From assembly GCA_044226015.1 (NCBI GenBank), contig JBGAHS010000010.1, positions 64,001-128,000 on the forward strand: DNA of 64,000 nucleotides, read 5' to 3'. How positions within the stretch are numbered: the first letter of the stretch is position 1; every line of letters starts with the position of its first letter. Both the position numbers and the translations under genes were made by a program. The DNA comes from Candidatus Obscuribacteraceae bacterium (lineage in GTDB: Bacteria; Cyanobacteriota; Vampirovibrionia; Obscuribacterales; Obscuribacteraceae). The notes below the pieces were generated by a model. That model was not told where the DNA came from, did not search any database, and saw only the letters and a list, made by a program, of their open reading frames with translations. Of this stretch, positions 5,477-61,658 are shown piece after piece.

Positions 5477-5558
5477 TAGGCGTTCGCGAAAATCTGCGAA
5501 GCGGTAGGGTCTCGGGAAAATCTGCGAAGCGTTAGGCGTTCGCGAAAATCTGCGAAGC
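5477..5558 (+). repeat. Three 28-bp degenerate units of the GCGAAGCGATAGC element family
   Basis: taggcgttcgcgaaaatctgcgaagcg-like unit x3 fills the gap between the convergent RT and ADP-ribosylhydrolase genes. Confidence 0.75.
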
Positions 5559-6499
5559 TAATTATTCTGAGCTGCTACTATCGTTTCAACGAACTTACTC
5601 AAGAGCGGCTTCACTATTTCCTGCCCGCGGAGTTCCTTTTGCCATCGCTGTGGGATAGCTCTGAGTCCATCCCTGACTCCAGCAAGTCCGCCAGCTATGG
5701 CGGCGGTCGTGTCGGTATCATAACCGAGGCCGATGGCTGCTTTTATGACATCCTCATAAGTGCCTTGCTCAAGGCACCACAATGCGCTGTAAAGGCTATC
5801 TACAACATAACCTGAGCCGCCAGGCGGTTCGTTTCTATGCATGATTTTCTCCAGTTCTTCGCTCAAACCGGGATCGTAGGCGCAGGTCTGTCGAACTGTG
5901 CTAACAGCTTCTTGCCAGGGTTCTACAGCTTCTCTCAATAATTTTCTAGCCAGTATGCTGTAAAGTGCGCAGCATACCTTAGATTGCGCGTGTGCATGTG
6001 TAATACTCGACTGTAGCATCGAGTCACGGGCCAGCTCTGCATCCGTACCGCGATGGAAGAGGGCTAAGGGAAGAACCCTCATCAATGACCCATTCCCGTT
6101 ATCTCTTTCTGTTTTCAGACCTGCGTCTAATGGGCGTACACCTTTTTGAAGACGCGCTATAGCCATTTGGGAGGTGGTTCCCACGTCGAAGACGATATGG
6201 TCCACAGCATTGTGACCTCTCTCGAGCCAATTCACGAGAAGATCAGCGAAGTCACGAGGATCGAATTCATCACATCGTAAAAGCGATTCTAGCAAGCACA
6301 ATGCCTGCGCACCATCGTCAGACCAGGTTCCGGCGGGCACTCCTAGATGGGCTGGTGTGAAATTTTTCGGTGGATCCATTTCAATCAGAGGCTTTTCCGG
6401 GATGTCCTCTGGCGGGCGAAACTCATACGGCACGCCCAGGGCATCACCGATGAGGAGTCCCATAATTCCACCATAGATTCGGTCCGCAAACGTAGTCAT
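5558..6499 (-). CDS. ADP-ribosylglycohydrolase (DraG/ARH family)
   Basis: IGDALGVPYEF, GTWSDDG, GNGSLMR, GYDTDTTAAIAG motifs. Confidence 0.92.
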   Translation of the reverse strand: MTTFADRIYGGIMGLLIGDALGVPYEFRPPEDIPEKPLIEMDPPKNFTPAHLGVPAGTWSDDGAQALCLLESLLRCDEFDPRDFADLLVNWLERGHNAVDHIVFDVGTTSQMAIARLQKGVRPLDAGLKTERDNGNGSLMRVLPLALFHRGTDAELARDSMLQSSITHAHAQSKVCCALYSILARKLLREAVEPWQEAVSTVRQTCAYDPGLSEELEKIMHRNEPPGGSGYVVDSLYSALWCLEQGTYEDVIKAAIGLGYDTDTTAAIAGGLAGVRDGLRAIPQRWQKELRGQEIVKPLLSKFVETIVAAQNN

Positions 6500-6777
6500 A
6501 ATCTGATTTCCGATGAATGCATTGCCTCATGATACTAGCTCACAGAAGATTTTGCGATCTTGACAGGGCTAAACAGCTGAATACTTTCGAGAGTTTCGCG
6601 GCTGACCAGCAAGCATGCTCTTTCACTGAGGCAGGAGAGCCTAACGGCAGTCCGAATGGTCGAGTGAGTCTCACAGCTACAGTTCGTTCAATTTAAACTT
6701 AAAGCAGACAAAATCAGATGTCGGTGCTAGCATCCATTCTTATCGGGTAACTAAATATAGGGCACTTGTGGGGTGTT

Positions 6778-8040
6778 ATGAATAGAACTGCTAAAGCCGT
6801 ATGTTTACTTCTTGTGCTTTGCACGGCTCTAATGCCGGTACTTGCAGGTCCTACGAAAACAACAACTGCAAAAGCACCGGCTAAGGCACCGGTGAATCCG
6901 GCTTTTGACAGCGGTGTTGCACTGTACAATCGTAAGGATTACCGAGCGGCTGCCGTCCAATTTGAGGCAGCTATGAAGACTTCGCCATCCAGTCCTGATG
7001 TCATCTACTATTGTGCTTTATGTAATCAGCTTAGTAATAACCGCTCGCGTGCGAAACAGTTGTTCGAATACATCAGCAATAACTTTCCGACCTCGAGAGT
7101 GGCTCCTATGGCACAAACTGCATTGGGTCAGTTGAATACTCTTTCGTCCGCTTCGCCCGGCTCCTCAGCTGCGAGTGTTTCCAGTTCTGCTTCGAACGTA
7201 GCTGCGAGTTTATCCAATCGTCGTGGCGGAGAATCCGATCTCGCAAATGTTCCTGATGTAGTTAAAATTCCTTTTGAGAAAAGAGGCAACGATATCATTG
7301 TCCAGGTCAAAGTAAACGGGAAGCAGGAGAGTTTTATTCTCGATACTGGAGCGCAAACAATTGCAATTGGAGCCAACCATCTTCGTGATTGGGGGATAAG
7401 TGCCAGTGAAGGACGCGACTCCTATGAAATTGGTGGTGTGGGCGATGGAAAGGCGAAGGGGTGGAATCAGCCGCTCGATATCAGATTGGGTCCAATTTAT
7501 CGCAAAGATTTTGTATGCTCAATTCACGACAATATGCCTGGTGAACCATTACTGGGGCAGGATTTTTTGAAGTCATTCAATATTAATGTCGATGATTCGA
7601 CGAGGTCTGTGGTTCTGGCAAAGAAAGGCTCGCTGGGCGCCAGGGATATTTCTCATCGGAGCTACTATGGAGTGGAGATCCCCTTTAAGCGTTTACCTAG
7701 CGGTCACATGATGGTGGACATAAAGATCAACAACAAACCATTTCCCATTATGTTTGATACCGGATGCGAACGAACATCCTTTGCTGCTAGCGACTGGACA
7801 AAACTGGGTTTTTCTATTCCAGATAGTGCTCAAAAGGGCAAGGCAATTGGCGTTTTAGGAGAGACTACTGCTTATTATTTCGAGACCGAATCAATAAAGC
7901 TGGGACCGATCGAGCAGTCACCCGCTCCAGTAAGTGTGACTGAGGGAAGCCGTGTGTCTCTGCTTGGAATGAGCTTTTACGGAACCAAAAAATACACAAT
8001 TGATACCACTCGTAGTGTAATTATTTTTGACGAAAAGTAA
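6778..8040 (+). CDS. Secreted TPR protein with two retropepsin-like aspartyl protease domains
   Basis: Signal-peptide-like N-terminus, TPR-like helices, two DTG motifs (ILDTGA, MFDTGC) each followed by LLG; ATG at 6778 preferred over TTG at 6766. Confidence 0.8.
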   Translation: MNRTAKAVCLLLVLCTALMPVLAGPTKTTTAKAPAKAPVNPAFDSGVALYNRKDYRAAAVQFEAAMKTSPSSPDVIYYCALCNQLSNNRSRAKQLFEYISNNFPTSRVAPMAQTALGQLNTLSSASPGSSAASVSSSASNVAASLSNRRGGESDLANVPDVVKIPFEKRGNDIIVQVKVNGKQESFILDTGAQTIAIGANHLRDWGISASEGRDSYEIGGVGDGKAKGWNQPLDIRLGPIYRKDFVCSIHDNMPGEPLLGQDFLKSFNINVDDSTRSVVLAKKGSLGARDISHRSYYGVEIPFKRLPSGHMMVDIKINNKPFPIMFDTGCERTSFAASDWTKLGFSIPDSAQKGKAIGVLGETTAYYFETESIKLGPIEQSPAPVSVTEGSRVSLLGMSFYGTKKYTIDTTRSVIIFDEK

Positions 8041-8340
8041 GAACTGCGTGATACTGTTTGCGGTGGCAACTTTAGTCGGCTGCAAATTCTTTTTGTGACG
8101 AAAAGTGCATGCTAATTGGTCTTATTCGGATCCGTGGATAGGCCAAGCAACCTTCCATTGGCACATCTGTCCGGTTCTGCGGTTAAAGACTCGTTACATC
8201 CGTTGTCTCGAAATGCCTGATTTGCGGACATGTACATGGATGTCAATGATAGGCGTTTCTTAGATAAGGCTCTTGCAGATGGAAAAACCATATAATAGTC
8301 AGCTCTTGTTTAGTACTTTTGATGTGTAAGGAGAGCTGCT

Positions 8341-9441: not shown

Positions 9442-9484
9442 GCGCACTTTGGGTGCAGGCTCTTGGAATGCCTTTAAAAATAAT

Positions 9485-9999
9485 GCTGTTCGCGAAAATT
9501 CGAGTTGGGGCAGAAAAACGCGGAGCGATACCTGTTCGCGAAAATTCGAGTTGGGGGAGAAAAACGCGAAGCGATAGCTGTTCGCGAAAATTCGAGTTGA
9601 GGGAGAAAAACGCGAAGCGATAGCTGTTCGCGAAAATTCGAGTTGAGGGAGAAAAACGCGAAGTGATAGCTGTTCGCAAAAATTCGAGTTGAGGGAGAAA
9701 AACGCGAAGCGATAGCTGTTCGCGAAAATTCGAGTTGAGGGAGAAAAACGCGAAGCGATAGCTGTTCGCGAAAATTCAAGTTGAGGGAGAAAAACGCGAA
9801 GCGATAGCTGTTCGCGAAAATTCGAGTTGAGGGAGAAAAACGCGAAGTGATAGCTGTTCGCAAAAATTCGAGTTGAGGGAGAAAAACGCGAAGTGATAGC
9901 TGTTCGCAAAAGTTCGAGTTGGGGAGAAAAACGCGAAGTGATAGCTGTTCGCGAAAATTCGAGTTGAGGGAGAAAAACGCGAAGCGATAGCTGTTCGCG
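9485..9999 (+). repeat. Tandem array, 46-bp unit x about 11, GCGAAGCGATAGC element family
   Basis: Unit gctgttcgcgaaaattcgagttgagggagaaaaacgcgaagcgata at 9485, 9531, 9577 and onward. Confidence 0.95.
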
Positions 10000-10192
10000 T
10001 TTGGGATTGCAATGAGTAACCAGAAGCTATATCAAAGAATCGTGATTCTGCCTCTCTGCGTTGGTTTTGGGGCGTTACATGGTTTCGATAGCGCTTTTGA
10101 TTAAGTGGCGATTATAAATGAATTTAGTGGTTTCCAAAACTCTCATCGCACCTTGCATAGAATGATCTGTAATTCCCTCTGGGTCACATAAA

Positions 10193-12903: not shown

Positions 12904-12950
12904 ATCGGCACGTGCTAAAATTTAGAGTTCCTTCCGGGGTACCCTTCTGT

Positions 12951-15392: not shown

Positions 15393-15401
15393 GTGTTCTC
15401 G

Positions 15402-15780
15402 GAAAAACGAGAAGCGATAGCTGTTCGCAGAAAAACGAGAAGCGATAGCTGTTCGCGAAAAACGAGAAGCGATAGCTGTTCGCGAAAACGAGAAGCGATA
15501 GCTGTTCGCAGAAAAACGTGAAGCGATAGCTGTTCGCAGAAAAACGTGAAGCGATAGCTGTTCGCGAAAACGAGAAGCGATAGCTGTTCGCGAAAAACGT
15601 GAAGCGATAGCTGTTCGCAGAAAAACGTGAAGCGATAGCTGTTCGCGAAAACGAGAAGCGATAGCTGTTCGCGAAAAACGTGAAGCGATAGCTGTTCGCA
15701 GAAAAACGAGAAGCGATAGCTGTTCGCGGAAAACGTGAAGCGATAGCTGTTCGCGGAAAACGTGAAGCGACAGCTGTTCG
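15402..15780 (+). repeat. Tandem array, 26-28-bp unit x14, minimal core of the GCGAAGCGATAGC element
   Basis: gaaaaacg(a/t)gaagcgatagctgttcgc(a) head-to-tail between convergent genes. Confidence 0.95.
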
Positions 15781-19600: not shown

Positions 19601-19644
19601 AACCGCTATCGGTTCACGTCAGATTCCGTGAACCGATAGCGGTT
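19601..19644. repeat. Perfect inverted doublet of the palindromic element (REPIN/BIME-like)
   Basis: aaccgctatcggttcacg (19601-19618), 8-nt spacer, cgtgaaccgatagcggtt (19627-19644). Confidence 0.85.
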
Positions 19645-19721: not shown

Positions 19722-21305
19722 TTACCGCAGAGTCGGAACATTCACATAATGTGGTGAAATGTATTTGGAACTCAGTTGGGAACCTGTTCCGTCACGACAA
19801 GCGAAACTCCTTAATATTTCATCCGCAGATATTTCTGTCTGGTTGGCAATCCAATAATGCCCCAGATAAGGTTGCAGATACTTGCGGCTTATTCTCTTCC
19901 AAACAGTTTTTACTGTATTTTTAAAGTCTTCCGAAATTGCAGTTGGGAAATGTGCCAAATTGTCTATCGGTGTTTTGCACTTACGATACAAGAGTCCAGG
20001 CGCCGATTCGATGAGTCCTTCAAACTCCAACATTCCCAGCGTAAATAGAAGTTCGGATAGGTCTAGTCTCGTTGCATTCAATAGACCCTCTACGTTGGTG
20101 TAATTTCCAATCGACAGAGTTTTGAGAATCAGCTGGCGAATAGCTAATAGTTGCGTCTGAGAATCAGACAGCTCGTTGCAGAAGGTTGACTCATATGGTT
20201 CGCCACTTGGTGCTGCCGTTGACTTTTCAAATTCTTCTGCACCATTTTGTTCACCGTCAGCTTTGTCACTTGGCGTGAAATCAATCCGAAGCGTTTCCTC
20301 TTTGTCCGCATTTTCTTCGGCGCTACGATAATCTGTGTTAATCGAAGCATCGCTTTTGGATTCATCTTGGCTTTGGCTTCTGCCATACAGAGGTTCTTCC
20401 TTGTGCACAACCTGAGCTTTCGTTTCCAATTTTTGTGAGTCGAGTGAATTCTGTTTCAGAGGGGCTTCGATTTGAACTGGGTTGTTATCCATTAGCTCAT
20501 CATCGAAAGATTCAATTTCAATTTTGCCATTGAAATCATTTTCAACACCGTTGACTAAACTATCAACCCCATCGTTGACTAAACCATCAACTCCACCGTT
20601 GACTAAACTATCAACCCCATCGTTGACTAAACCATCAACTCCACCGCTGACTAAACCATCAACTCCACCCCTGACTGCCCTATCAATCTCGCCGTTGAAT
20701 TCACTGCCTATTTGGTCAAGCATGTCTTTTTCTTCCTCTTCAATAATGCTCTTTAGGTCGTTGAAGAATTCCTGATTTATCTGTAGATTGCTCGCTTCAA
20801 AAAGCTCGATAATCTTGTCTATTTCGAATTGCTCTGCACGTGGATGCTCTCGTGCTGGTGTCTCTGTACTCCTTCGTCCAAAGATTTCTGTGAATACACC
20901 AGAATACAGTTCTTTGATAGGCGTCATAAGCTCAGCAAACTTGATAGATATTTTTCTCCGCACATTTGCAGCAGTTGCTGGAGCAACAGAAAAACGCCTT
21001 GCAAGTTCTGCCGCCGAAAAAACTGCTTGTCTGAGTGAGATCCACAATGCAGCAAGCCAGGGTTTGAATTTGCGGATTCCATGAAAGGTGGTCTGCGCAA
21101 AAACTCTAACTTTTCTCAGGCATAATTGACATCGAAAGAAGTTTGGATCTTCTGATCGCTGATAACATGCTACTCCGCACTTTCTGCAAGGTGGAAGCGT
21201 CGAACCACAAATGTCTCCTAAGAAGATCTTGCAAGTTAGATCGTCAGGAAATTGAATGTCGAATTCATCCGCTAATTCAAGAAAGTGATCATTGTTGCTT
21301 GTCAT
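19722..21305 (-). CDS. IS1595-transposase-derived protein (Zn ribbon + HTH, acidic insert, winged-helix-like segment)
   Basis: CxxC...CxxC (PPCRKCG, FRCQLC), TTFHGIR..KPWLAALW, AAELARRFSVAPATA and C-terminal ISRKYLQPYL resemble IS1595 Tnp; DDE motifs and terminal inverted repeats not recognised. Confidence 0.55.
   Translation of the reverse strand: MTSNNDHFLELADEFDIQFPDDLTCKIFLGDICGSTLPPCRKCGVACYQRSEDPNFFRCQLCLRKVRVFAQTTFHGIRKFKPWLAALWISLRQAVFSAAELARRFSVAPATAANVRRKISIKFAELMTPIKELYSGVFTEIFGRRSTETPAREHPRAEQFEIDKIIELFEASNLQINQEFFNDLKSIIEEEEKDMLDQIGSEFNGEIDRAVRGGVDGLVSGGVDGLVNDGVDSLVNGGVDGLVNDGVDSLVNGVENDFNGKIEIESFDDELMDNNPVQIEAPLKQNSLDSQKLETKAQVVHKEEPLYGRSQSQDESKSDASINTDYRSAEENADKEETLRIDFTPSDKADGEQNGAEEFEKSTAAPSGEPYESTFCNELSDSQTQLLAIRQLILKTLSIGNYTNVEGLLNATRLDLSELLFTLGMLEFEGLIESAPGLLYRKCKTPIDNLAHFPTAISEDFKNTVKTVWKRISRKYLQPYLGHYWIANQTEISADEILRSFACRDGTGSQLSSKYISPHYVNVPTLR
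20548..20680 (-). repeat. In-frame 24-bp tandem repeat (GVDGLVND-like x about 5)
   Basis: ttgactaaac(t/c)atcaac units inside the IS1595-like ORF. Confidence 0.85.
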
Positions 21306-21565
21306 ATAGCTGTCCTCTGAGCTCAGTAATTTTAGAAACGTAATTACTTCGAAAAAAGTTCAATTTGTGAGCATTAAAAATTCAAAGAACAGAAATCTCA
21401 CTTACTGAAAATTCCATTCCAAAAAAAGTGTGAACCGGAACAAGAATGATGCATCAAAAGAAGTCACCATGAGCTTCACGCCACGAATGGAAGTGCCTGC
21501 GAACCCTGAGCTGCGCGTCTTATTTAAGGGAGCGGGGGCATTTTCGCTTTCGGCGGTAGAAGATT

Positions 21566-23404: not shown

Positions 23405-23501
23405 TTTGATCACCTCCAGTTAAGTGCACCGCTCATGGTGCTCATTGATTTGTCTGTTAGCTCTTATCTACGCGGAGTATCCTGATTTCTTGAGCATATT
23501 T

Positions 23502-23633
23502 GTGTGGATCCGGTGTGTGTGGATCCGGTGTGTGTGGATCCGGTGTGTGTGGATCCGGTGTGTGTGGATCCGGTGTGTGTGGATCCGGTGTGTGTGGATC
23601 CGGTGTGTGTGTGGATCCGGTGTGTGTGGATCC
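23502..23633 (+). repeat. 15-bp tandem repeat x about 8-9 inside the ABC operon
   Basis: gtgtggatccggtgt between the ATPase and permease genes. Confidence 0.92.
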
Positions 23634-23699
23634 GATTGGTCTTCGGAAAACTCGGATTTTGTAGGATCCGAATTCTCCTGTAAGACTCTCGTTGCGTTT

Positions 23700-25949: not shown

Positions 25950-26452
25950 TGCTGACGGAACGTTGGGAAGAAGAAAAACGCGAAGCGATAGCTGTTCGCG
26001 AAATTTGCTGGCGGAACGTTGGGAAGAAGAAAAACGCGAAGCGATAGCTGTTCGCGAAATTTGCCGGCGGAACGTTGGGAAGAAGAAAAACGCGAAGCGA
26101 TAGCTGTTCGCGAAATTTGCCGACGGAACGTTGGAAAGAAGAAAAACGCGAAGCGATAGCTGTTCGCGAAATTTGCCGACGGAACGTTGGAAAGAAGAAA
26201 AACGCGAAGCGATAGCTGTTCGCGAAATTTGCCGGCGGAACGTTGAGAAGAAGAAAAACGCGAAGCGATATCTGTTCGCGAAATTTGCCGGCGGAACGTT
26301 GGGAAGAAGAAAAACGCGAAGCGATAGCTGTTCGCGAAATTTGCCGGCTGAAATTTTGGGAAGAAGAAAAACGCGAAGCGATAGCTGTTCGCGAAATTTG
26401 CCGGCTGAAATTTTGGAAGAAGAAAAACGTGAAGCGATAGCCGTTCGCGAAA
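25950..26452 (+). repeat. Tandem array, about 56-bp unit x9, GCGAAGCGATAGC element family
   Basis: Unit gcgaaatttgccggcggaacgttgggaagaagaaaaacgcgaagcgatagctgttc between convergent genes. Confidence 0.95.
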
Positions 26453-29303: not shown

Positions 29304-29895
29304 AAAACGCGAAGCGATAGCGGTTGGAGATTGAGCAGAACGCGAAGAGCGGGAAGCTAATCCAGTGGCAGGTGGAAAATAGAAAAACGCGAAGCGATAG
29401 CGGTTGGAGCTTGAGCAGAACACGCAGCGCGGAACAAGCTAATCCAGTGGCAGGTGGAAAATAGAAAAACGCGAAGCGATAGCGGTTGGAGAATGAGGAG
29501 AACACGAAGAGCGGGAAGCTAATCCAGTGGAAGGTGGAAAATAGAAAAACGCGAAGCGATAGCGGTTGGAGAATGAGTAGAACACGAAGAGCGGGAAGCT
29601 AATCCAGTGGAAGGTGGAAAATAGAAAAACGCGAAGCGATAGCGGTTGGAGATTGAGCAGAACGCGCAGCGCGGAACAAGCTAATCCAGTGGCAGGTGGA
29701 AAGTAGAAAAACGCGAAGGGATAGCGGTTGGAGATTGAGCGGTACGCGCAGAGAGGCAGATGCCAGTCAAGTGAGATGTGGAAAGTAGAAAAACGCGAAG
29801 CGATAGCGGTTGTAGATTGAGCAGAACGCGCAGATCAAGCAGATGACAACCAAGAGGAAGAGAAATTTAGAAAAACGCGAACCGATAGCGGTTGG
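29304..29895 (+). repeat. Tandem array, 80-82-bp unit x8, GCGAAGCGATAGC element family
   Basis: Core aaaacgcgaagcgatagcggtt at about 29304, 29383, 29465, 29545, 29625, 29707, 29789, 29871. Confidence 0.92.
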
Positions 29896-34600: not shown

Positions 34601-34960
34601 GCGAACCGCTATCGGTTCGCGAAAAGAAGCTGTAATGTCGAATTTAACTGATTTTGCTTGTTTATCTTACTTGTCGGAATTTCAAACGACTTGCGGCGAA
34701 AAAATTCGAACCGCTATCGGTTCGCGAAGAGAAGCTGTAATGTCGAATTTATCCGATTTTGCTTGTTTTCTTATTCGACGGAATTTCAAAAACGACTTGC
34801 GGCGAAAAAATTGCGAACCGCTATCGGTTCGCGAAAAGAAGCTGTAATGTCGAATTTATCTGATTTTGCTTGTTTATCTTACTCGACGGAATTTCAAACG
34901 ACTTGCGGCGAAAAAATTCGAACCGCTATCGGTTCGCGGTATTAGCTGTAATGTCGAATT
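34601..34960 (-). repeat. Tandem array, 105-107-bp unit, four perfect-hairpin cores
   Basis: cgaaccg-ctat-cggttcg at 34602, 34707, 34814, 34919 (reverse orientation of the element). Confidence 0.92.
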
Positions 34961-37317: not shown

Positions 37318-37650
37318 GCGAAGAAAAACGCGAAGCGATAGGGGCTGAAAATTTCTGGCGCGAGAAAGTGCAACGCGAAGAAAAACGCAACGCGACGAAA
37401 AACGCGAACCGATAGCGGTTGAAAATTTCTGGCGCGAGAAAATGCAGTGCGAAGAAAAAACGCGAAGCGATAGCGGTTGAAATTTCGGCGCGAGAAAATG
37501 CAGTGCGAAGAAAAAACGCGAAGCGATAGCGGTTGAAATTTCGGCGCGAGAAAATGCAGTGCGAAGAAAAACGCGATCCGATAGCGGTTGAAATTTCGGC
37601 GCGAGAAAGTGCAGTGCGAAGATAAACGCGAAGCGATAGCGGTTGAAATT
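37318..37650 (+). repeat. Tandem array, mostly 55-57-bp unit x6, GCGAAGCGATAGC element family
   Basis: aaaaacgcgaagcgatagcggttgaaatttcggcgcgagaaaatgcagtgcgaag units right after the 37307 stop codon. Confidence 0.9.
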
Positions 37651-37755
37651 TCTCAAGAACATGGTCACTTTGTTTCCATCCTTCTCTTGACGCGCGCTCA
37701 TTTAGCAGAGTTGAAAAGAATGTATATTTTGCTGAACACCTCAGGAAATATTGCT

Positions 37756-39402
37756 ATGGCACGTCGCACCAATTGGCGCTGTTACCCTGCAGTGACCGCC
37801 GTCACTGCAATCCTGAACTCTTTTCTGTTTTGCCCCTCGGTCGACGCGTCAGAGGCTTTGTTCAAGCCCTTATACGCCGAAGGGAAGAAAAATGTCGACC
37901 AGCTAAAAAACTACGCTGAAGGCGAAAGGCTTTTGGAAATGGCTCTGCAGAATGCTGAGCATATTCCGAAAGATTCACCAGAGATGCTCAACCTTCTGAC
38001 TGAGTTATGTCAAGCGTACACTTGTACAGGAAAGGTGACAAAAGCTGAGCCTATTTTGAAAGCTGTCCTCGAAGTTAGAGAAAAATCAAAAAAGAAAGAT
38101 GATTTGGCTCTGTTTCAGACTGTGATGCAGCTCGGGACCGTATATCGTCGCCAGGATAAGTATGCCGAGTCAGAGGCTCTGTATAAGCGGGGACTCAGCA
38201 TGTTTGAAGGAAAGGGACCTATCAAAACCCTGTTTCAAGCACTGGTAATGTACGCACTGGCGTCTTTGTACCTAGATATGAATAAGAATCTAGAGGCGGA
38301 AACCATTATCAATCAGGCTCTTATCCTTCGCAAGCAGAGCATGTTTAGCAAAGGATTGCCAGAAAGCGGACTATATGAAGCACTCGGACGTGCCCTGTTC
38401 CAGCAAGGCAAATACGCTGAGGCAGAGACCAAATATAAATTAGCGCTGGAAACTCTCGAAAAGAAACCTGAAAACAATCGTGATCTTGCTTTCATTGAAG
38501 GCAGCCTGTCCGCTGTATACAAATCTGAAGGACGGTATGATGAGTCCAGAAAACTTCTCGAAGATTCCATCAGAATTCTGGAAAAAACGGATGGACCGGA
38601 AAGCACAAACGTAGCCAATGCTTACAACAAGTTTGCTGAGACGGCGATCGCTCAAGATCGCTACGAAGAAGCTGAAACATATGTGCGCAAAGCGATGGCA
38701 ATTCACGAAAAATTGAACGGCAACGAGCACTCCAATATTGCTAACGACATGTCTAACTTGATCGATATTTACCGGTCACAAGGCAAGTACTCCGCGGCCG
38801 AAACACTCGGCAAGAAGGGGGTGGAAATTTACTCGAAAGTACTGGGTCCTGACTCAGTTATAACCGCAATGGAAATGGAGAAGCTTGCATGGGTGTATTG
38901 CGATCAGGCAAAATACGCTGATGCAAAAACACTATGTAAAAATGCAATTGACATAGTAGGACAAAGGGAAGGACAAAATTCCAACCGAATGCCAAAACTG
39001 TGGCGTCAGCTCGCATTCATAGAGAAATGTTTGAACAACAATGCTGAAGCTGAGCGTTTGCTACTCCAGACCTCGACAGCGCTTGCACAGGACAAGAATG
39101 CCGAGCAAGCCCTCGTGGGGTTCACCTATTCAGAACTCGCAGCTCTCTATGTAGCAGATCATAATCTTGCAGGAGCAGAGGATAGTTCGAAAAAAGCGAT
39201 TGCGGTAGAAGAAAAATTGTATGGAGCTGATCATATACGCCTGCTGGGTGATCTAAATCTTCTATCGCGAATATACGTTGAAGAGAAGCGAGATGCAGAT
39301 GCAGCCGCCATAAAAGCCAGGATAGACACAATCTACGACAAGCATCCCGAATTGAAAAAGCTGTGTCAGTGGCGAAGGTTCCTGCTGCGGCATCACCTGT
39401 AG
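37756..39402 (+). CDS. Secreted TPR protein (kinesin-light-chain-like TPRs), probably the 5' part of a frameshifted TPR-caspase gene
   Basis: Repeated QGKYAEAE-like TPRs; ATG 37756 gives a signal-like N-terminus; the upstream extension lies in repeat DNA. Confidence 0.8.
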   Translation: MARRTNWRCYPAVTAVTAILNSFLFCPSVDASEALFKPLYAEGKKNVDQLKNYAEGERLLEMALQNAEHIPKDSPEMLNLLTELCQAYTCTGKVTKAEPILKAVLEVREKSKKKDDLALFQTVMQLGTVYRRQDKYAESEALYKRGLSMFEGKGPIKTLFQALVMYALASLYLDMNKNLEAETIINQALILRKQSMFSKGLPESGLYEALGRALFQQGKYAEAETKYKLALETLEKKPENNRDLAFIEGSLSAVYKSEGRYDESRKLLEDSIRILEKTDGPESTNVANAYNKFAETAIAQDRYEEAETYVRKAMAIHEKLNGNEHSNIANDMSNLIDIYRSQGKYSAAETLGKKGVEIYSKVLGPDSVITAMEMEKLAWVYCDQAKYADAKTLCKNAIDIVGQREGQNSNRMPKLWRQLAFIEKCLNNNAEAERLLLQTSTALAQDKNAEQALVGFTYSELAALYVADHNLAGAEDSSKKAIAVEEKLYGADHIRLLGDLNLLSRIYVEEKRDADAAAIKARIDTIYDKHPELKKLCQWRRFLLRHHL

Positions 39403-44689: not shown

Positions 44690-45215
44690 TTGCTTCTGTT
44701 AGATCTGTGGGTTGGATCCGTGCGTTGGATCCGTAATCCATTCCGCTGAAACGACGACGTGGGATCCATTCTGTTGAATCGATGAAGTGGGATCCGTGCC
44801 TGAATCGATGAAGTGGGATCCGTGCATTTGAATCGATGAAGTGGGATCCGTGCATTTGAATCGATGAAGTGGGATCCGGGCATTGAATCGATGAAGTGGG
44901 ATCCGCGCATCGAATCGATGAAGTGGGATCCCTGCCTGAATCGATGAAGTGGGATCCCTGCCTGAATCATAACGGTGGCTCCGTGCATTGAATCGTTGAC
45001 GGTTGATCCGTGCATGAATCGATGAAGTTGGATCTGTGCCTGAATCATGACCGTGCCTGAATCATGACGGTGAATCCGTGCCTTGAATCGTTGACGGTTG
45101 ATCCGTGCATGAAGACGGCGAAGTTGGGATCCGTGCCTGAATCATGACGGTGGATCCGTGAATTGAATCGATGAAGTTGGATCCGTGAATTGAATCGATG
45201 AAGTTGGATCCGCGC
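44690..45215 (+). repeat. Degenerate tandem array, about 26-28-bp unit, roughly 18 copies
   Basis: gaatcgatgaagtgggatccgtgc(att/ct) between convergent genes. Confidence 0.9.
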
Positions 45216-45216
45216 C

Positions 45217-46044
45217 TTAATTAGCAGTAGCCAGCTCGCTGGTATCGTAAGCCGTGGCTTTAGCTGCTGCAAAAATCACATCATAGCCTTTTCTCTGACC
45301 CACCACCCATTTCTTGAGTCCTTCCATGTCCATTATGGGGCGATGTGCTGGATTCGCATAATCCATCTTCATTAAAGTGTTGACGAAAGCTTCAGCTTTT
45401 GATTCTTCCAAATCTGGCAAAGCTGTGAAATTGCAATGCGAATATGGTGCTGAAGTCCAGAGGCAGCTAAATTTGGAATCTGCACCACCGGCGGTTAACG
45501 CAAACCACGTACTTTCTCCGATACAGCCGGCATCAGCTTTACCTTCTTCAAGAGCTAGCAGGACGTCACTCTCGCTTCGTCCTGTATCGCCATGCTTACC
45601 TACATCAGTATTGAACCTCACAGCAGTGAAATCCTTATCTGGAATCATACCTTCCAGTCGCAAGTAGTGCTCTGGCACCACCGCTGCCTGTGCGGAGTCT
45701 TTGCTGCCGAAAGCAACACGTTTGCCTCGGAGATCCGAAAGGACTTTGATTTTGCTATCAGCAGGAACAATGATCTTAGAAGTGAATTCTACATCTGTGT
45801 CTCTCATGGCGAGGATGCGGCTCTCTTTCTTCAGTCTGTTTTCCACTCTAACAAAAGCAAGATTCGTATTCCATGCAATGTCAATGAAGCCATCGAAGAG
45901 CGCCTCTACCTGTGCCTCGTAGTTTGAAAATAGCACGTAGTCGAATGGCACACCCTGGGCCACGAAGAAATCCCGAATACCTTCCCAGATTGGAACCACT
46001 TTTGCATCATATGCTACCGCACCAATCTTGATACTAGATTTCAT
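45217..46044 (-). CDS. PhnD/SsuA/transferrin-fold substrate-binding-like protein without signal peptide
   Basis: IGAVAYD, YEAQVEALFDG.IDIAWN, DLRGKRVAFGSKDS; ATG 46044 with gagg upstream. Confidence 0.75.
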   Translation of the reverse strand: MKSSIKIGAVAYDAKVVPIWEGIRDFFVAQGVPFDYVLFSNYEAQVEALFDGFIDIAWNTNLAFVRVENRLKKESRILAMRDTDVEFTSKIIVPADSKIKVLSDLRGKRVAFGSKDSAQAAVVPEHYLRLEGMIPDKDFTAVRFNTDVGKHGDTGRSESDVLLALEEGKADAGCIGESTWFALTAGGADSKFSCLWTSAPYSHCNFTALPDLEESKAEAFVNTLMKMDYANPAHRPIMDMEGLKKWVVGQRKGYDVIFAAAKATAYDTSELATAN

Positions 46045-52060: not shown

Positions 52061-52425
52061 GAACGGTTATGGCTTCGCGTTTTCTTACGCTCTCATGAAT
52101 TTCTCGAACGGCTATCGCTTCGCATTTTCTTTGGGCGCTCATGAATTTCTCGAACGGCTATCGCTTCGCATTTTCTTAGGCGCAGATAAAATTCTCGAAC
52201 GGCTATCGCTTCGCGTTTTTCTTAGGCGCAGATAAATTTCTCGAACGGTTATGGCTTCGCGTTTTCTTACGCTCTCATAAATTTCTCGAACGGTTAAGGC
52301 TTCGCATTTCTCTTACGCTCTCATAAATTTCTCGAACTGCTATCGCTTCGCATTTTTCTTACGCTCTCATAAATTTCTCGAACTGCTATCGCTTCGCGTT
52401 TTTCTTACGCGCTATAAATTTCTCT
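52061..52425 (-). repeat. Tandem array, 45-46-bp unit x8, GCGAAGCGATAGC element family (reverse orientation)
   Basis: gaacggctatcgcttcgc(g/a)ttttctt...aatttctc units. Confidence 0.92.
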
Positions 52426-55500: not shown

Positions 55501-55949
55501 TGTTGTTCTCACAATTTACTAGCATGCTCGACCTTATAATCGAGGAGCTTAATAAGCGTAAGATGGAGTTCGTTGAAATTCGTGGAAGCACCAGGGATAG
55601 AGTCACGCCAGTTAAGCGATTTCAGAGTGGTGAGGTCTTTTTGTTTCTGCTGAGCTTAAAGTCGGGTGGTGTGGGACTGAATCTGACTGCGGCGGATACT
55701 GTAATTCATTATGATCCCTGGTGGAATCCCGCAGTCGAAAATCAGGCGAGTGATCGTGCGCATCGAATAGGTCAGGATAAGTCAGTATTTGTGTTCAAGT
55801 TGATCGCGGCAGGCACCATCGAAGAGCGCATTTTGGAATTGCAAGAGAGAAAACGTGTTATCGCTGAGTCTGTGCTAGACGAAGACGCAGACCTGCCATT
55901 CGAGCTAACAGAGGACGATATAGCAAATTTGCTCAAGCCGCTGGTATGA
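52515..55949 (+). CDS. SWIM zinc finger + SNF2-family helicase
   Basis: CSCSC....CKH, LADDMGLGKT, LDEAQ, LTGTPIEN, FSQF, GLNLTAAD, WNP, DRAHRIGQ; contains short in-frame repeat inserts. Confidence 0.92.
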   Translation: MHNNFQNLLSISERDVFLTFGTLVANEGDEYQKSARVLSANLSPNGKAVTGEVQGSVLDPYSVQIRAASEGLKCSCSCSMQTYCKHSAALLFDLIRGGRVNRVAVKNALSAQEEQKGLYYILEPQSNPHRVELKIVHAARTAAGAWSLIQKGELSRITQRSASYISQDDFEIARSFLASTRNANWIYRNAFPDTGDLGERLLKRIISTGRAYWKELGASPLTMGPEKHGKVDWKVGTSGRQIPFFNTGTRGDITIFVGVPWYVNARNASAGSLKVEVSNGTLRSILSAGPMDPSSALQFWQTLLRADKNIPAPIKQVEMKKVLLKPSIVLNLNSVEKHESQTDAKTGAQTDGPTGAQTDVKEHLSAGKAELKFDYGTLDFQGKSEKRVVKNNVVTIYQRDLVFEKQHIAELESCGLVCATPPEARGSAASLVFTAASPVSWLRFTLKESSKLKENGWQVRADRPCDFNVVKLTADWTLGLSEGTDFWFSLDLGVEFEGNKIQLLPIIRNALRALKMHSEQATLEVLSNANVDGIFYAEIGDGRFLALPFERVKIIVESFLWLMENGNVGASVQMGSGTDAGTQIRTDAGAGAGTNVGASVGASVESSVGTIEGSSGGTDATARESVSLPQLFELSSNLQHIAGSPNFQFNECLKELLERIRRRTNNPTALSPPPEFNAELRGYQLEGMRWLDFLREFSLGGILADDMGLGKTIQALAHFCVEKSEGRLDKPVLVICPSSVLPNWKSEIDRFAPHLSTLSLWGIERSKNFPEIKNADLVLTTYSLLSRDIDVLSKQAWKAVVLDEAQMIKNPDAQVTQNACRLRSEYRICLTGTPIENNLGELWSQFNFLMPGFLLDRSEFAQSFRFPIEKHQDLAKRRLLSDRVRPFLLRRTKELVAKELPEKTVILKRVELEGAQRDLYETIRLAMSEKLNLVLESKGFERSKIVILDALLKLRQVCCDSRLLKMDQAKSVTESAKLDALLNMLDELQQEGRRVLLFSQFTSMLDLIIEELNKRKMEFVEIRGSTRDRVTPVKRFQSGEVFLFLLSLKSGGVGLNLTAADTVIHYDPWWNPAVENQASDRAHRIGQDKSVFVFKLIAAGTIEERILELQERKRVIAESVLDEDADLPFELTEDDIANLLKPLV

Positions 55950-56181
55950 GTCTGTGGACGTTTGTTTCATGAGTTCGCGAGCCGATTTCGTTTGCTTGTT
56001 GAATTCGCTCAACATCTCCTGCTGATACAAATCCTCTGGAGGTAATTGAAATTAATCGAAAAATCACAGCGCTGTTGAAAAATCGGTTTTTATGCCTTCA
56101 GCATTTTTTCCTTTGTTTCAGATTGATTTCAGAATCTGTATCTAATATTTAAAACTCATGAAAGTCCGATGAGGGCGGTAA

Positions 56182-57282
56182 ATGGTTGAGTATTTTGATG
56201 CAGAGAATCACAAGACTGAGTGGTCCACCGGACCATCTGTTGATATTCCTGTATTCTTTGCTTCCGATAGAAAGCGAATTAGCTCCAACAAGGAGACTGA
56301 CGGGAAGACTCTTGCGCCCCTACAGTTAGGCGAATGTATTGTGCGGGTGCCCTGTGAGCGTGAGTGGCAATCTTCCGAGACGGAATTGAAGGATGAGCTG
56401 CAGCAGTTGAACTGGGAAATGGAGCTGACAGAGCCTACAATTAAGCCAACTATCGATGTAAGGGGCTACGTTGCCGAACGTGCCCCACGGGCTGCTGTTC
56501 CGGTAGTTGCGGAAAATGTGCAGTCCTTCTGGTCAGACTTACGCTCCGCAGTTGAGAAACAAAAAGAGCATAAGGTTTACGTATACATACATGGATTCGC
56601 TTCTAGCGGTGAGAATTCGCTTTATGCATCGGGTGTTTTGGCTTCTCAGGTTCAGGCTCCGGTGGTTGCGTTCACCTGGCCATCTGCGGGAACTGTGGGT
56701 TTGAAATATCCCCATCTGGCCGGATCAAAAACCACGAGGGCGCTTTTCAAGGCTGACCGAAAGATGATCGATGACCCCCAAGTTGGAAGTGATCTCGGAG
56801 AATTCCTGGCTAGGTTGAAAACGGAGCTTCCGACAAATGTTCAAGTTGAATTGGTTGCACACAGTTTGGGCAACCGGCTGCTAACCAGGCACTTGAAAGG
56901 TTCGGCTCAAGAGAATTTCGATAACGTATATTTTCTTGCTCCTGATGTTGACAAGAAAGTCTTTCTCTCTTCTGTGCCAGAGATCCTCTCAAAATCCAAG
57001 CACGTTTCTGTTTTTATGAATCCACACGATAGGGTTTTGCAAATTTCTGGGCTGAACAATTTGCTTGAGTTTCATTCATGGAAAAAGCTGGGAAAGTCTA
57101 AGGTTAGTGCTGCGGGAATAGATTTCATTGATTATGGAGCAGTCGCCAAACCCAGAGGTATTGGCCACTACATACCGTTTGAACAGTTTGGGAGTCTCTT
57201 GAGAAACCAGAGCTTGTACTCGCCTGACGGGAAGAGGGAGTATATTTTGACCAGGCGAAGCAAAATCGAGAAGGCTGGCTAA
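56182..57282 (+). CDS. Alpha/beta hydrolase (DUF900-like)
   Basis: FFASDR, YIHGF, FTWPS, AHSLG, LAPDVD, DRVL. Confidence 0.8.
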   Translation: MVEYFDAENHKTEWSTGPSVDIPVFFASDRKRISSNKETDGKTLAPLQLGECIVRVPCEREWQSSETELKDELQQLNWEMELTEPTIKPTIDVRGYVAERAPRAAVPVVAENVQSFWSDLRSAVEKQKEHKVYVYIHGFASSGENSLYASGVLASQVQAPVVAFTWPSAGTVGLKYPHLAGSKTTRALFKADRKMIDDPQVGSDLGEFLARLKTELPTNVQVELVAHSLGNRLLTRHLKGSAQENFDNVYFLAPDVDKKVFLSSVPEILSKSKHVSVFMNPHDRVLQISGLNNLLEFHSWKKLGKSKVSAAGIDFIDYGAVAKPRGIGHYIPFEQFGSLLRNQSLYSPDGKREYILTRRSKIEKAG

Positions 57283-57316
57283 ATTCGAAAATCTGCGTGG
57301 GTGAAACGTGCTATGC

Positions 57317-57577
57317 AAAAACGCGATAGCGGTTCACGTTTTCCTATGTGCGGGTGAAAAGTGTGATGCAAAAACGCGAAGCGACAGTGGTTCGCAAATT
57401 TCTTATGCGCGGATGAAAAATGTGATGCAAAAACGCGAAGCGATAGCGGTTCACGAATTTCTCCGCGCAGGCAAAATGTGCGATGCGAAAACGCGAAGCG
57501 ATAGCGGTTCACGAATTTCTCCGCGCAGGCAAAATGTGCGATGCGAAAACCCGAAGCGATAGCGGTACGCGAATTTC
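57317..57577 (+). repeat. Tandem array, about 53-59-bp unit x5, GCGAAGCGATAGC element family
   Basis: aaaacgcgaagcgatagcggttcacgaatttctccgcgcaggcaaaatgtgcgatgcg units between convergent genes. Confidence 0.9.
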
Positions 57578-57713
57578 TATCGTGATCGTATCTTTAATTG
57601 AACCTTCATCACTGATGACAACCGTCTAGGCAAATATTTCATAGATATCGTGTCTCTGAGCTGAATTATATGGTGTCGGAACTTCTTCACCAGTGGCTTG
57701 GATTTTCTTTGTC

Positions 57714-58928: not shown

Positions 58929-59163
58929 TAGAACGAATGCATGCTCAGCAGCCTAAGATGCACGAAATATAGCCGTCTTCGGGTGCCATGAGAGGAATAT
59001 TGGATTCTCCTAAGGTTAGCAATCACTTGCTTCTCTTGCCTTGATGTATTAAGTGAGCGCAGGTAGCTGCTGCAGTTTTCCTGCAGTGTCAACTTTCTCA
59101 CACCAAAGTTTTCTCTCCAGTTCTTTCAACGGGTCATGGGTCCTGAAGCAAGAGTCCTACCCC

Positions 59164-59199
59164 AAAAGAAAAGCGCCCCGTTTTCACGAGGCGCTTTCT
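59164..59199 (-). terminator. Intrinsic terminator downstream of the tRNA
   Basis: aaagcgcc...ggcgcttt stem with a T-rich tail on the minus strand. Confidence 0.75.
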
Positions 59200-59213
59200 A
59201 TCGGTCTTCAATT

Positions 59214-59290
59214 TGGCCTGCCCGGCATGATTCGAACATGCGACCTCATGGTTCGTAGCCATGCGCTCTATCCAGCTGGGCTACGGGCAG
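59214..59290 (-). tRNA. trnR: tRNA-Arg (anticodon ACG), CCA encoded
   Basis: Acceptor CTGCCCG/CGGGCAG, anticodon arm CATGG-CTACGAA-CCATG, T arm GCATG-TTCGAAT-CATGC, ends G-CCA; one C-A mismatch in the D stem. Confidence 0.95.
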
Positions 59291-59650
59291 TCAACGGAAG
59301 ATTCATTCTATCACGAGGTTCATTCCTTGCTAGCTTTGCCAACCGACCTTTAACTAAGATTGCGAAATGATACTTGACTACGGTGGGTGCCAGGCACGAA
59401 TCCACGTCCTGCCACTTTAGCAATCGGTCGATAGTCCCTAACCCCTCGCCAATTAAGCAAAAAGCTCCTTAATTTAGTCAAGTGCCGGCAAGTCTTAAGT
59501 CCGCCAAAAATGTTCAAGGAAAAGAGGCGTGTCCCTCGTTGACAAGAAGGGGCTGTTTCTTATCGCATAATGTCAGCATAAAGGAACCCCAAATTCAAAC
59601 TCTGCCTCTTGAAATGGCACGAGAGAGTAGTGATTTCTATTGGAGGAAGT

Positions 59651-59749
59651 ATGGTAATTACTTGGGGACCGAGCATTATTCTGAGCATCCTGCTAAGTAT
59701 CGGCTTGACTATATTGGTGAATGTCATACTGGGAGGTGTTCGGCGATAA
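59651..59749 (+). CDS. 32-aa hydrophobic small protein (not in ORF track)
   Basis: SD GGAGG upstream of ATG; MVITWGPSIILSILLSIGLTILVNVILGGVRR is one TM helix with a basic C-terminus. Confidence 0.6.
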   Translation: MVITWGPSIILSILLSIGLTILVNVILGGVRR

Positions 59750-59878
59750 CTTGGCACACCATCCTCAGTTATGAGCCTCAGTGTTCAGCTTCAGGAATGT
59801 ATGTTGTGTTCGTCAGCGCCAGAACTCATGCTTAAATAGGACGTTCAATTAGTCTGAGTACATCCGTTCCATTCAACT

Positions 59879-60913
59879 TTACTTATGCTGTTCAGCAGTG
59901 GTTTTCTTACCGACTTCCGAAGACTTCGGCTTAGTCTCGTGATCCGGCGAGTGTTTTTCCATGTAGTAGTGCTGAATGATAGCAGCACCTACATCTGCTG
60001 CGCGCTCAAATGCATAAGTTGAGGCGATTGTGCCGAAACCGCCTTCTCCGCCATATTCCCAGGCTAGAAGTTTACTCGTTAGCTTGCCGATATCGAACTT
60101 TTCATTTGATGGAGCTGGTGGCTCGAAATCTGTTCGAGGTACTGACCTGGGTTTGATTTGGAAATCTGATCCTGGAATACGCAGTTCAGTCGAAAGTTGT
60201 TCAACTTTTGGTTTTAACGAGCCCCAGCTATGAGTGGTCTTATACCAGGTTTCATCTCCTGCGCCTGTTCTTAAAACTGATAGTCCATCGCTGGAACTTA
60301 TCAACTTAGATCCGTTGTTGAACTCTCTTACAGTGAAGTTCATTTTCGGCGAGTTTGTTTCGCTCAGTTTTGTCTTGAGAAATGTTTGGGAGTATCCATC
60401 AAATTTGTCTTGGACAGATTCGAAACCATTCATGCCTTTTGCGTCGAAGTGAGAAACCTTTTGACCAGAGATTATTTCACCGAATCTGGTGCCTGCAAGT
60501 TTGTGTTCTGCAAAGTGAGCGCCGACGCCACCAGCGACAATCGCCATCCCGTAATTTACGACGGCATCTCCGATGTTATCACCGAGCCACTTTTTGTTTT
60601 TCTCTAAATTATTTGGATTTTGCCAGGTATCAGCCATAGGGCTGTAAAACCTGTTTGCCAGGTCAACGCCTGCAAAACCTACAAAGGACATCCCGGCGAT
60701 GTGGAGTCCTTTCTGTACCAGATGGTTCGGATTTCGTGACGCCAGCGTGAGTACTGTACCTAATGCCACAGCAGAAACTGCTTCAATTGCAGTTCGTTCT
60801 TTGTGTTGCCATGCGTCATCAATGGCATCGCGAATCCCTTCTGGTACATGCGAAGGCAGACTCAGTAAGAGATCTTTCTCTCGTGATAACTTATTTCCGA
60901 TTGTATCCGACAT
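59879..60913 (-). CDS. Hypothetical membrane-associated protein
   Basis: Long ORF with Gly/Ala-rich hydrophobic segments; ATG 60913 preferred over TTG 60970. Confidence 0.6.
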   Translation of the reverse strand: MSDTIGNKLSREKDLLLSLPSHVPEGIRDAIDDAWQHKERTAIEAVSAVALGTVLTLASRNPNHLVQKGLHIAGMSFVGFAGVDLANRFYSPMADTWQNPNNLEKNKKWLGDNIGDAVVNYGMAIVAGGVGAHFAEHKLAGTRFGEIISGQKVSHFDAKGMNGFESVQDKFDGYSQTFLKTKLSETNSPKMNFTVREFNNGSKLISSSDGLSVLRTGAGDETWYKTTHSWGSLKPKVEQLSTELRIPGSDFQIKPRSVPRTDFEPPAPSNEKFDIGKLTSKLLAWEYGGEGGFGTIASTYAFERAADVGAAIIQHYYMEKHSPDHETKPKSSEVGKKTTAEQHK

Positions 60914-61219
60914 TAGAGCAACCCAAACACCAATAAACTCACGGTACTTCTGATTTGTTTTGGTCAACAATGTTCATTTGCACAGTCACCATGTGGGGGA
61001 GACAGCAGGTGCTATCGTTACCGGTTGGTTATCTTTCAGATTCCGCCCACCGCAAGCTTCTTGCATCCTGAGGCGCGCGCTCGTGGGGAATTTCTTCAGC
61101 CACCAGTTGTGTAAGCTCTTTTTTTGTTAGGCTACTTAACGTTTCATCAACTATGTGAATGAGCTTTGAGTGTTTGTGACCAGATTCCCTTGTTTTGTTC
61201 ACGTTGTTGAATGCACTGT

Positions 61220-61658
61220 CGAAGAAAAACGCGAAGCGATAGCGGTTGAAAAATTCAACTGGTGTCTAAATGGGTGCGAAGAAAAACGCGAAGCGATAGC
61301 GGTTGAAAAATTCGAGCAGGTGCGTGATGGACGCGAAGAAAAACGCGAAGCGATAGCGGTTGAAAAATTCGACTGGTGTCGTGCATGGGTGCGAAGAAAA
61401 ACGCGAGGCGATAGCGGTTGAAAAATTCGACTGGTGTCGTAATGGGTGCGAAGAAAAACGCGAAGCGATAGCGGTTGATGAATCCGAAGGGTGGCGCGGA
61501 TGGGTGCGAAGAAAAACGCGAAGCGATAGCGGTTGATGAATCCGAAGGGTGGCGCGGATGGGTGCGAAGAAAAACGCGAAGCGATAGCGGTTGAAAAATT
61601 CGACGGGTGAGATGCATGGACGCGAAGAAAAACGCGAAGCGATAGCGCTTGGAAAATT
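61220..61658 (+). repeat. Tandem array, 57-58-bp unit x8, GCGAAGCGATAGC element family
   Basis: Core gaagaaaaacgcgaagcgatagcggttga with aaaaac at 61225, 61282, 61339, 61397, 61454, 61512, 61570, 61628; inter-core segments related but variable. Confidence 0.93.

Follow-up and report, generated by a model that had tools for sequence, protein, structure and literature searches.

The window analysed here is a stretch of 64,000 nucleotides from Candidatus Obscuribacteraceae bacterium (contig JBGAHS010000010.1, positions 64,001 to 128,000). It corresponds to G000:C4:64001-128000, G000 being the source genome (8.19 Mb, 13 contigs, 92% complete). Eleven of its intergenic regions carry an imperfect palindrome, repeated in doublets or tandem arrays, and inside the zone covered by these arrays lies a gene hereafter named the partner gene (Table 1). 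The arrays are real, and they are part of an undescribed system made of a gene and its sites: each copy of the partner gene in the genome sits amid its own palindrome variant, spread over about 70 kb on either side. Neither the partner gene (19722-21305) nor the finding that site variants are each confined to the surroundings of their own gene copy was part of a preliminary description of the window, whose interpretation as a whole is partly supported.

Table 1. Repeat arrays and partner gene of the window. Positions are those of the window; matches are to the 14-bp core with at most two mismatches.
Feature	Position	Strand	Period (bp)	Matches	Remarks
Degenerate array	5477..5558	+	28		about 3 copies (x2.9), between genes for a retron-type reverse transcriptase (RT) and an ADP-ribosylglycohydrolase
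Array	9485..9999	+	46	11	11 cores, downstream of ychF
Array	15394..15780	+	26-28	14	14 cores
Inverted doublet	19601..19644	.		2	adjoins partner gene; perfect 18-bp stem, 8-nt loop
Partner gene	19722..21305	-			527 aa; inside array zone; present in independent run X2
DprA-type winged helix (in partner gene)	19971..20162	-			with L-E-[LF]-x-G helix (ComM contact in Vibrio DprA); PF17782 match below cut-off, E 6e-4
Conserved upstream motif (candidate)	21337..21363	-			TTGAACTTTTT-N12/13-CGT; promoter-like or extra half-site
Array	25956..26452	+	56	9	9 cores
Array	29304..29895	+	80-82	8	8 cores, upstream of recD2
Array	34602..34960	-	105-107	4	4 cores
Array	37318..37653	+	55-58	6	6 cores; unit one is 74 bp
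Array	52061..52424	-	45-46	7	7-8 cores
Array	57294..57579	+	58-59	4	4-5 cores; other unit number in a related strain
Array	61220..61658	+	57-58	8	8 cores

Searching the window for the core gave 75 matches, 73 of which fall at ten loci; two isolated matches, at 38686 and 44066, were set aside as chance. Together with the degenerate array at 5.5 kb, this agrees with the 11 loci and roughly 75-80 copies of a REP-like (repetitive extragenic palindromic) sequence previously reported. The period reported for each locus (28, 46, 26-28, 56, 80-82, 105-107, 55-58, 45-46, 58-59 and 57-58 bp) and the shared orientation of eight arrays were also found again, with eight loci on the + strand, two on the - strand and an inverted doublet at 19.6 kb. 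Arrays mostly consist of n+1 palindromes flanking n spacers. The objection that they are assembly artefacts fails, as contigs of an independent 2016 run, X2, enter the arrays at 57.3 and 61.2 kb. One of these contigs covers 55900-57459 with no substitution and one gap, and X2 contigs cover most of the partner gene; among the X2 pieces listed, none spans a whole array. In run X3, which contains a diverged strain, joints skip 171 bp or step back 174 bp, corresponding to other unit numbers, and the partner gene of the window holds a strain-variable 24-bp repeat. Two familiar repeat types were considered and rejected: array units repeat their spacers, unlike CRISPR, and most arrays start and finish with full palindromes, which speaks against a miniature inverted-repeat transposable element spreading by half-sites and TA duplication. 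With Rfam at gathering threshold, the only match in the window was a tRNA.

The genome-wide scan proposed in the preliminary description confirmed the motif but not a genome-wide distribution. With at most one mismatch, the first 200 kb of contig C4 account for 79 of the 83 matches, and a weight-matrix scan placed 108 of 113 matches at C4:14-126 kb. Clustering of all tandem arrays of the genome then revealed further regional palindrome families with the same centre, CG-N-TA-N-CG: GGTACC-cored families at C1:155-865 kb and C7:555-794 kb, a GATATC-cored family at C1:1092-1207 kb, others at C6:51-73 kb and at the end of C11 and start of C10, and a GTTAAC-cored pair. A motif polarised along the replichores, as had been envisaged, is not what these families show: loci of the window family are 11 leading, 1 lagging and 2 unclear, but those of family B are 7, 14 and 16, respectively.

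Seven paralogues of the partner gene were found in G000 (E 4e-49 to 5e-38), and a CG-N-TA-N-CG palindrome lies 89-483 bp downstream of all eight copies. In the window, the cores of the 19.6-kb doublet are 89 and 119 bp past the stop codon of the partner gene (hairpin fold z -9.3). The genome was scanned using solely the site adjacent to each gene as a seed, and the other loci within 100 kb were counted. For five of the eight seeds, loci within 100 kb of their own gene numbered 9/10 (window family), 13/13, 11/34, 6/22 and 3/9, where about 2% was expected; regions within 100 kb of any gene copy make up about 19% of the genome. Five of the eight site variants are thus clustered around their own gene. 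The two closest gene copies, at C11:214.2-214.3 kb and C7:474.6 kb, both carry an additional long hairpin after the stop codon, ahead of the palindrome; few other sites have been seeded by them.

The partner protein begins with a zinc ribbon and a helix-turn-helix of IS1595 origin (about residues 1-125), followed by the motif F.EIF.RRS.ETPA..HP..EQ (138-159), a repeat-expanded acidic linker, a DprA-type winged helix (about 382-445) and IS1595-like C-terminal helices, with no DDE core. Matches in Pfam were mostly below cut-off: DprA_WH in 8/8 copies, and the IS1595 zinc ribbon PF12760 in 7/8, one paralogue being above cut-off and the window's own copy having no listed match. When aligned with three IS1595 transposases by hhalign (probability 99.8, E 5e-28, 297 columns), the zinc ribbon, helix-turn-helix and C-terminal helices correspond; the catalytic core is left unaligned, with the winged helix in its place. 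By these alignments, the partner gene is a derivative of an IS1595 transposase in which a DprA-type winged helix has replaced the DDE core. Intact IS1595 transposases (PF12762) were found neither in G000 nor in its 7 congeners, and are present in 8 of 41 genomes overall. Among 58 homologues from 18 genomes, the four cysteines and R148 are present in all, S149 and E161 in 56 each and T152 in 54, and P158 is nearly invariant. The motif TTGAACTTTTT-N12/13-CGT was found upstream of 8/8 copies in G000 and of 54/58 homologues.

This conservation bears on one alternative, in which the partner protein is a nuclease or recombinase of a new kind. The motif shared by the family (R148, S149, T152, P158, E161), which lies in the segment replacing the first catalytic-Asp motif, would then stand in for the DDE centre, for instance with a serine nucleophile, and the protein would nick or recombine the dyad in cis, leading to RAYT-like insertion and rolling amplification. 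An invariant central TA within a CG-N-TA-N-CG core and inverted arms does resemble a cleavage or recombination site, and models of TnpA-REP action obtain tandem addition from nicks (PMC3333891). However, an AlphaFold model of the C6 paralogue (pLDDT 79, pTM 0.67) had no Foldseek match at E<=0.001, and the VIA fold matches listed are winged helices only, spanning residues 182-252 only, so that other parts of the protein are barely covered and no nuclease or recombinase fold appears. The 58 homologues show neither an HUH motif nor an invariant tyrosine, and the capture and retention of a DprA domain would be left unexplained. We consider this alternative unlikely.

Homologues (E<1e-22) were detected in 18 of 24 genomes of the same family, one of them with a contig-end fragment only, in none of 16 other genomes of the class, and in none of 300 further genomes of the phylum, a sample without other family members. 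The nearest protein clusters in the Atlas are from Melainabacteria, the family being of Obscuribacterales type. A word-indexed protein search returned 23 proteins, the sole named one being a hypothetical protein, and a metagenome scan found no relative. The Atlas cluster of rank 5, a 584-aa hypothetical protein of Spirochaetota with 68% PF12762, scores 0.82 to the partner family, and might be another IS1595 derivative.

In these relatives, the association between gene and palindrome is found again. Just upstream of 41 of 50 homologues lies a TA-centred palindrome of 18-64 bp, compared with 38 of 3000 random windows; its inner arm positions vary, yet 85-95% of them are paired. The exact 14-bp core occurs in 15 of 18 family genomes with the protein and in none of 6 without it, counts in which kin are not independent. 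The window motif itself was not found in 40 relatives, and is best described as a lineage variant of a wider core. In G012, all 20 sites are at most 69 kb from three genes; in G013, 56 sites lie in the 122 kb around the gene, in arrays with periods of 40-93 bp, against none in 400 kb of controls from the same contig. Clustering around the gene is therefore seen again in two other genera, and less clearly in three.

The partner gene and its arrays are insertions, because the orthologous gaps are empty in relatives and, conversely, the flanking genes of relatives' copies are adjacent in G000. The gap orthologous to the window's gene measures 126 bp in G002 and 281 bp in G007 and holds another gene in G003; that orthologous to the 15.4-kb array is 9 bp in G002. 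Reciprocally, a flank match was available for 47 copies of relatives, and in five of these cases both flanking genes are immediate neighbours in G000. Comparing orthologous loci, as the preliminary description had recommended, thus revealed both empty sites and, in the related strain, different unit numbers. In the G007 gap orthologous to 15394-15780 (L102, G007:C89), we observed a 16-bp tandem repeat containing the reverse complement of the 8-bp centre of the window family; G007's own gene copies have no matching palindrome. Two copies, L026 (G015) and L054 (G001), lie between the same gene pair, which is adjacent, with nothing between, at G000:C10:156.7 kb; this may be an ancestral locus or an insertion hot spot. 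The gene copies are under purifying selection (dN about 0.3 for dS of 1.4-2.0 in four G001 pairs, dS being saturated in two G000 pairs). They group by genome, the eight of G000 forming one clade with a support of 100, and have expanded lineage by lineage at non-syntenic loci.

A domesticated DNA-binding protein organising chromosome domains of about 150 kb, comparable to MatP/matS or ParB/parS, with arrays selected for multivalent binding, would account for this selection. Being imperfect dyads whose inner flanks vary, the palindromes resemble protein operators, in line with the protein-binding site that had been suggested earlier, and no ParB (PF02195) match was found in G000. Nevertheless, 38 of 41 genomes lack ParB, among them those devoid of the partner gene, and the number of gene copies (0-21 per genome), their positions and the number of sites vary widely between relatives, with the lineage-wise expansion just described. 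The domain of the window is moreover on C4, not near dnaA (C6:816 kb). Such an organiser thus appears very improbable. A ParB/parS centromere proper was rejected, PF02195 having no match in G000 and the sites not being clustered at the origin. Within the class, ParB_N (PF02195) was observed in only 3 of 41 genomes.

Spacers tell how the arrays may have arisen. For 8 of 12 tested loci of the window family, the spacer has a relative at another locus (z>4); in the four other families this is the case for 11/11, 11/11, 15/16 and 2/4 loci. Related spacers are also common across families, as in 27 of 192 pairs between the window family and family B. Outside the core, units are thus only in part locus-specific, whereas they had been described as locus-specific throughout, and a pure capture of unique flanking DNA, formerly put forward, is not supported, spacers being homologous across loci and families. 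These similarities point to a common doublet unit of about 62-69 bp, which would have diversified.

Tandem repeats of another kind are also enriched near the gene copies. The tandem arrays of G000 devoid of any family core, 362 in number, are densest close to the gene copies: 14.7 per 100 kb in the nearest 25 kb, then 9.9, 6.1, 4.2 and 3.2 per 100 kb with growing distance (about 4.5-fold). The nearest 75 kb contain 123 of them, whereas permutations averaged 46.9 and did not exceed 93 (0/2000). Of 439 tandem arrays of G000, 53 contain two or more occurrences of GGATCC, where about 2.3 such arrays were expected (in the window at 2736-2980, 23501-23634 and 44736-45221, for example), and the observed/expected ratio of GGATCC, 1.49, is the highest among the twelve palindromic hexamers listed; GGATCC arrays possibly stem from a separate duplication process, seeded by methylation or nicks.

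Could the genes simply have landed in regions that were already unstable? The palindrome would then be only an autoregulatory operator or terminator of the gene, its sites being spread by host slippage, the retron RT or Ku/LigD repair. Multi-copy loci do favour convergent gaps (27 of 60 classified loci against a background of 19%, with crude calls of open reading frames, ORFs; 15 loci inside such ORF calls and one at a contig end were left out). A retron-type RT and one Ku-LigD pair are also inside the window zone, and a second Ku-LigD is about 77 kb from another copy. But Ku/LigD is absent from the vicinity of six of the eight zones, the other RT match is partial and about 107 kb from the nearest copy, and the orthologous gaps are empty in relatives without the gene. 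Loop-less perfect palindromes of up to 64 bp, with compensating arm changes, also exceed what a terminator needs. We give little credit to this passive scenario. Addition templated by RT or non-homologous end joining, invoked in the preliminary description, is likewise at odds with two RT matches and two Ku/LigD loci for eight palindrome domains, and the core is absent from the sequence upstream of the retron-type RT. That RT (4585-5463, + strand; PADLOC RT_XIII / RT_II-A, E about 1e-90) lies downstream of Ku-LigD and is convergent with the ADP-ribosylglycohydrolase gene. Both Ku-LigD pairs of G000 (window 318-4265 and C1:1060-1064 kb) are less than 80 kb from a gene copy, which could be chance.

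We favour a cis-acting adaptor, because the winged helix resembles that of DprA, its ComM-contact helix is kept, and dprA, comM, yraN and comEC are all encoded in G000. In Vibrio, the C-terminal winged helix of DprA recruits the branch-migration helicase ComM via L350/E353/L354 (bioRxiv 10.1101/2024.10.21.619469), and YraN is described as a partner nuclease of ComM (bioRxiv 10.1101/2024.02.06.579203). In helix 230-237, the consensus of host DprA is kept at 66%, against 29% elsewhere in the domain, with L233 in 55/58 and E234 in 51/58 homologues. The partner winged helices are in 41 of 58 cases closer to DprA domains of the same family than to those of other families, at no more than 50% identity; a tree of winged helices was without resolution. 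A gene copy lies about 11-30 kb from host dprA in four genomes (G012:C2, G001:C7, G007:C45 and G019:C41), which may mark the place where the winged helix was captured. Another DprA-family gene, of shorter length, is present at G000:C2:37484-38104, on the 70-kb contig C2.

In the mechanism we propose, the transposase DNA-binding head of the partner protein would bind the cognate palindrome, and the captured winged helix would load ComM, the host helicase of natural transformation. ComM, together with YraN and RecA, would drive strand invasion, or cruciform or D-loop migration, at the sites. The doublet unit, in which a spacer of 40-47 bp separates two palindromes, would be copied into nearby intergenic DNA and amplified there. 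The same process would keep the arms of the gene-linked hairpin complementary, occasionally move the gene, and raise local tandem duplication. Transposases show cis preference, and action mostly in cis would give the range of about 70 kb and let each copy drift with its own variant. That the partner protein binds the dyad is very likely, and that it acts mostly in cis is probable. Whether its winged helix binds ComM appears evenly balanced. It is conceivable, rather than probable, that ComM with YraN and RecA drives site copying, gene moves and local duplication, and we likewise propose only tentatively that the arrays are the cognate sites of an IS1595-derived protein acting as a cis ComM loader. 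With somewhat more reserve, we suggest that a transposase, in which DprA's ComM-recruiting domain took the place of the catalytic core, may have turned into a sequence-specific and cis-acting loader of the host transformation helicase/nuclease, each copy maintaining a domain of about 150 kb, recognisable by a palindrome variant of its own, in which it spreads sites, moves itself and acts as a local mutator by tandem duplication.

Mobile elements often disable comM, and ComM may remove such elements (PMC12378983). The system might modulate natural transformation locally instead of copying itself: protein bound at many neighbouring sites would trap or redirect ComM, the surroundings of the gene resisting curing by incoming DNA that lacks the element or being favoured for uptake, and arrays would arise by host recombination and slippage before being selected for avidity. 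The cis range, the single variant per copy and the purifying selection on each copy suit such self-protection, and in Neisseria, arrays of intergenic mosaic elements (NIME) were proposed to promote exchange of adjacent genes (PMC1797815). However, selection by itself cannot create new loci, tens of kb away, of 28-bp sites whose spacers are shared, so that a copying step would be needed here too, and as unrelated tandem repeats are in excess around the genes, local DNA processing seems to be increased there instead of reduced. We hold this possibility to be rather unlikely.

Several observations weigh against the cis loader. As regards clustering, the three remaining seeds are weak or without effect (1/2, 1/2 and 0/3 loci near), families B, B2 and D have many distant loci, and sites of G001, G021 and G019 are more scattered, some on contigs without a listed gene. 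Spacer similarity does not decay over distance (Mantel p 0.28-0.96), and array copies are poor single-strand hairpins (z -0.9 at 26 kb). Gene copies are at most 65% identical, with none near-identical, so that present mobility is unproven. Concerning ComM, Q replaces E in 6 of 58 homologues. An L..LE..G helix is common in winged-helix folds, hence part of its conservation may be structural. As comM is present in 39 of 41 genomes of the class and dprA in 40 of 41, both being near-universal, co-occurrence is uninformative. Tracts dependent on ComM/YraN have a median of 6 kb with a 6.4-kb donor (bioRxiv 10.1101/2024.02.06.579203), so that published tracts alone do not yield a 70-kb range. Finally, as for the gradient of tandem repeats, G012 has a modest one (12 in 150 kb against 10 in 300 kb, p 0.03), that of G001 does not reach significance at the main threshold (3 against 1) and G013 has none (0 within 50 kb), in samples of 520-660 kb for G012 and G013 and 400 kb for G001.

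How does this system compare with those already described? Among the listed matches of a literature search, whose scope left out most subscription journals, ISfinder and supplements, no description of such a protein or system was found. The closest parallel is REP/BIME/REPIN-RAYT and the REPtrons (PMC3333891, PMC3116915, PMC5581495 and PMC3733652), in which, as here, imperfect intergenic palindromes of 20-60 bp occur singly, in inverted pairs or in tandem arrays, a gene derived from a transposase is flanked by its cognate palindrome, several such genes per genome have each their own palindrome group, and the picture is one of dispersal followed by local amplification. Here, on the other hand, the partner protein is derived from IS1595, with a DprA winged helix and neither HUH/Y1 nor a DDE core, and spread by a RAYT, considered in the preliminary description, is not supported, no Y1 transposase having been found in the genome (no PF01797 match in G000, in a search whose controls matched in 6/14). 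Flanks are A/T-rich, with no GTAG/CGTC tag (columns -16 to +16 of 41 homologue sites and array units). REP doublets are reported to be random in extragenic space, whereas sites here mostly stay within about 70-100 kb of a gene, family B being partly dispersed. The partner gene is also expanded within lineages, at non-syntenic loci, with up to 21 matches per genome.

IS1595 elements (PF12760/PF12762, NF033547) share with the partner gene a homologous zinc ribbon, helix-turn-helix and C-terminal helices, as well as multiple copies inserted between otherwise adjacent genes. They have terminal inverted repeats at both ends and an 8-bp target duplication; the ends inspected here showed neither paired terminal inverted repeats nor a target duplication, the copies being old enough for their ends to have decayed, and partner-gene stop codons often abut the next host gene. 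A single long palindrome marks the element, the copies are old and under purifying selection, and, as the catalytic core is gone, replaced by the winged helix, this is not an IS1595 element.

In staphylococcal STAR elements, a conserved motif is combined with spacers distinct per locus, and loci expand and contract (PMC3532100). Unit number is variable here too, around a conserved core, and spacers are locus-distinct but partly shared; the STAR abstract names no partner protein or regional variants, its motif appears unrelated, and the host is staphylococcal. In NIME, 20-bp inverted-repeat cores (dRS3/RS) alternate with spacer families of 19-214 bp, an arrangement reported as Neisseria-specific (PMC1797815). 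The alternation of core and spacer and the proposed tie to recombination with transforming DNA are alike, but the NIME core presented there is a single one throughout the genome, the candidate recombinase is encoded by a phage, and there is no gene linked in cis to each domain; the core found here differs from the dRS3 consensus, and the host belongs to the Melainabacteria. As for DprA-ComM(-YraN), a PF17782-type winged helix with its L/E/L interface helix is apparently kept; in the cited work, the domain is tied to a single-stranded DNA/RecA loader, whereas here it is fused to a transposase head and predicted to be sequence-specific. A tandem period differing at each site, which had been taken as unusual, is already known for STAR elements and BIME/REPIN arrays. 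The palindromes remain REP-like and locally amplified, without a matching described family, and because the make-up of the protein and the domain per gene copy fail the defining tests of every family considered, we regard this as a new kind of system.

The origin and spread of dispersed palindromes without a RAYT, such as STAR, NIME and CGTC-tagged REPs, is the open question addressed here. In the present case, sites are found with a candidate partner protein and obey a sharp spatial rule, a combination seen eight times in one genome and again in other genera. Because these features recur together, action in cis and co-evolution of site and protein become directly testable. Should the protein turn out to be a plain nickase, the system would instead be a variant of REP-RAYT logic. 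If our reading is true, bacterial transposases would have been domesticated around palindromes a second time and independently, here starting from a DDE family and with loss of catalysis. If the link with ComM holds, this would be a mobile element exploiting, not disabling, natural transformation, and it would offer a natural blueprint for loading a helicase in a sequence-specific manner and for a regional mutator. The genomes of these bacteria would then harbour a non-catalytic mobile element that creates an addressable hot zone of genome change.

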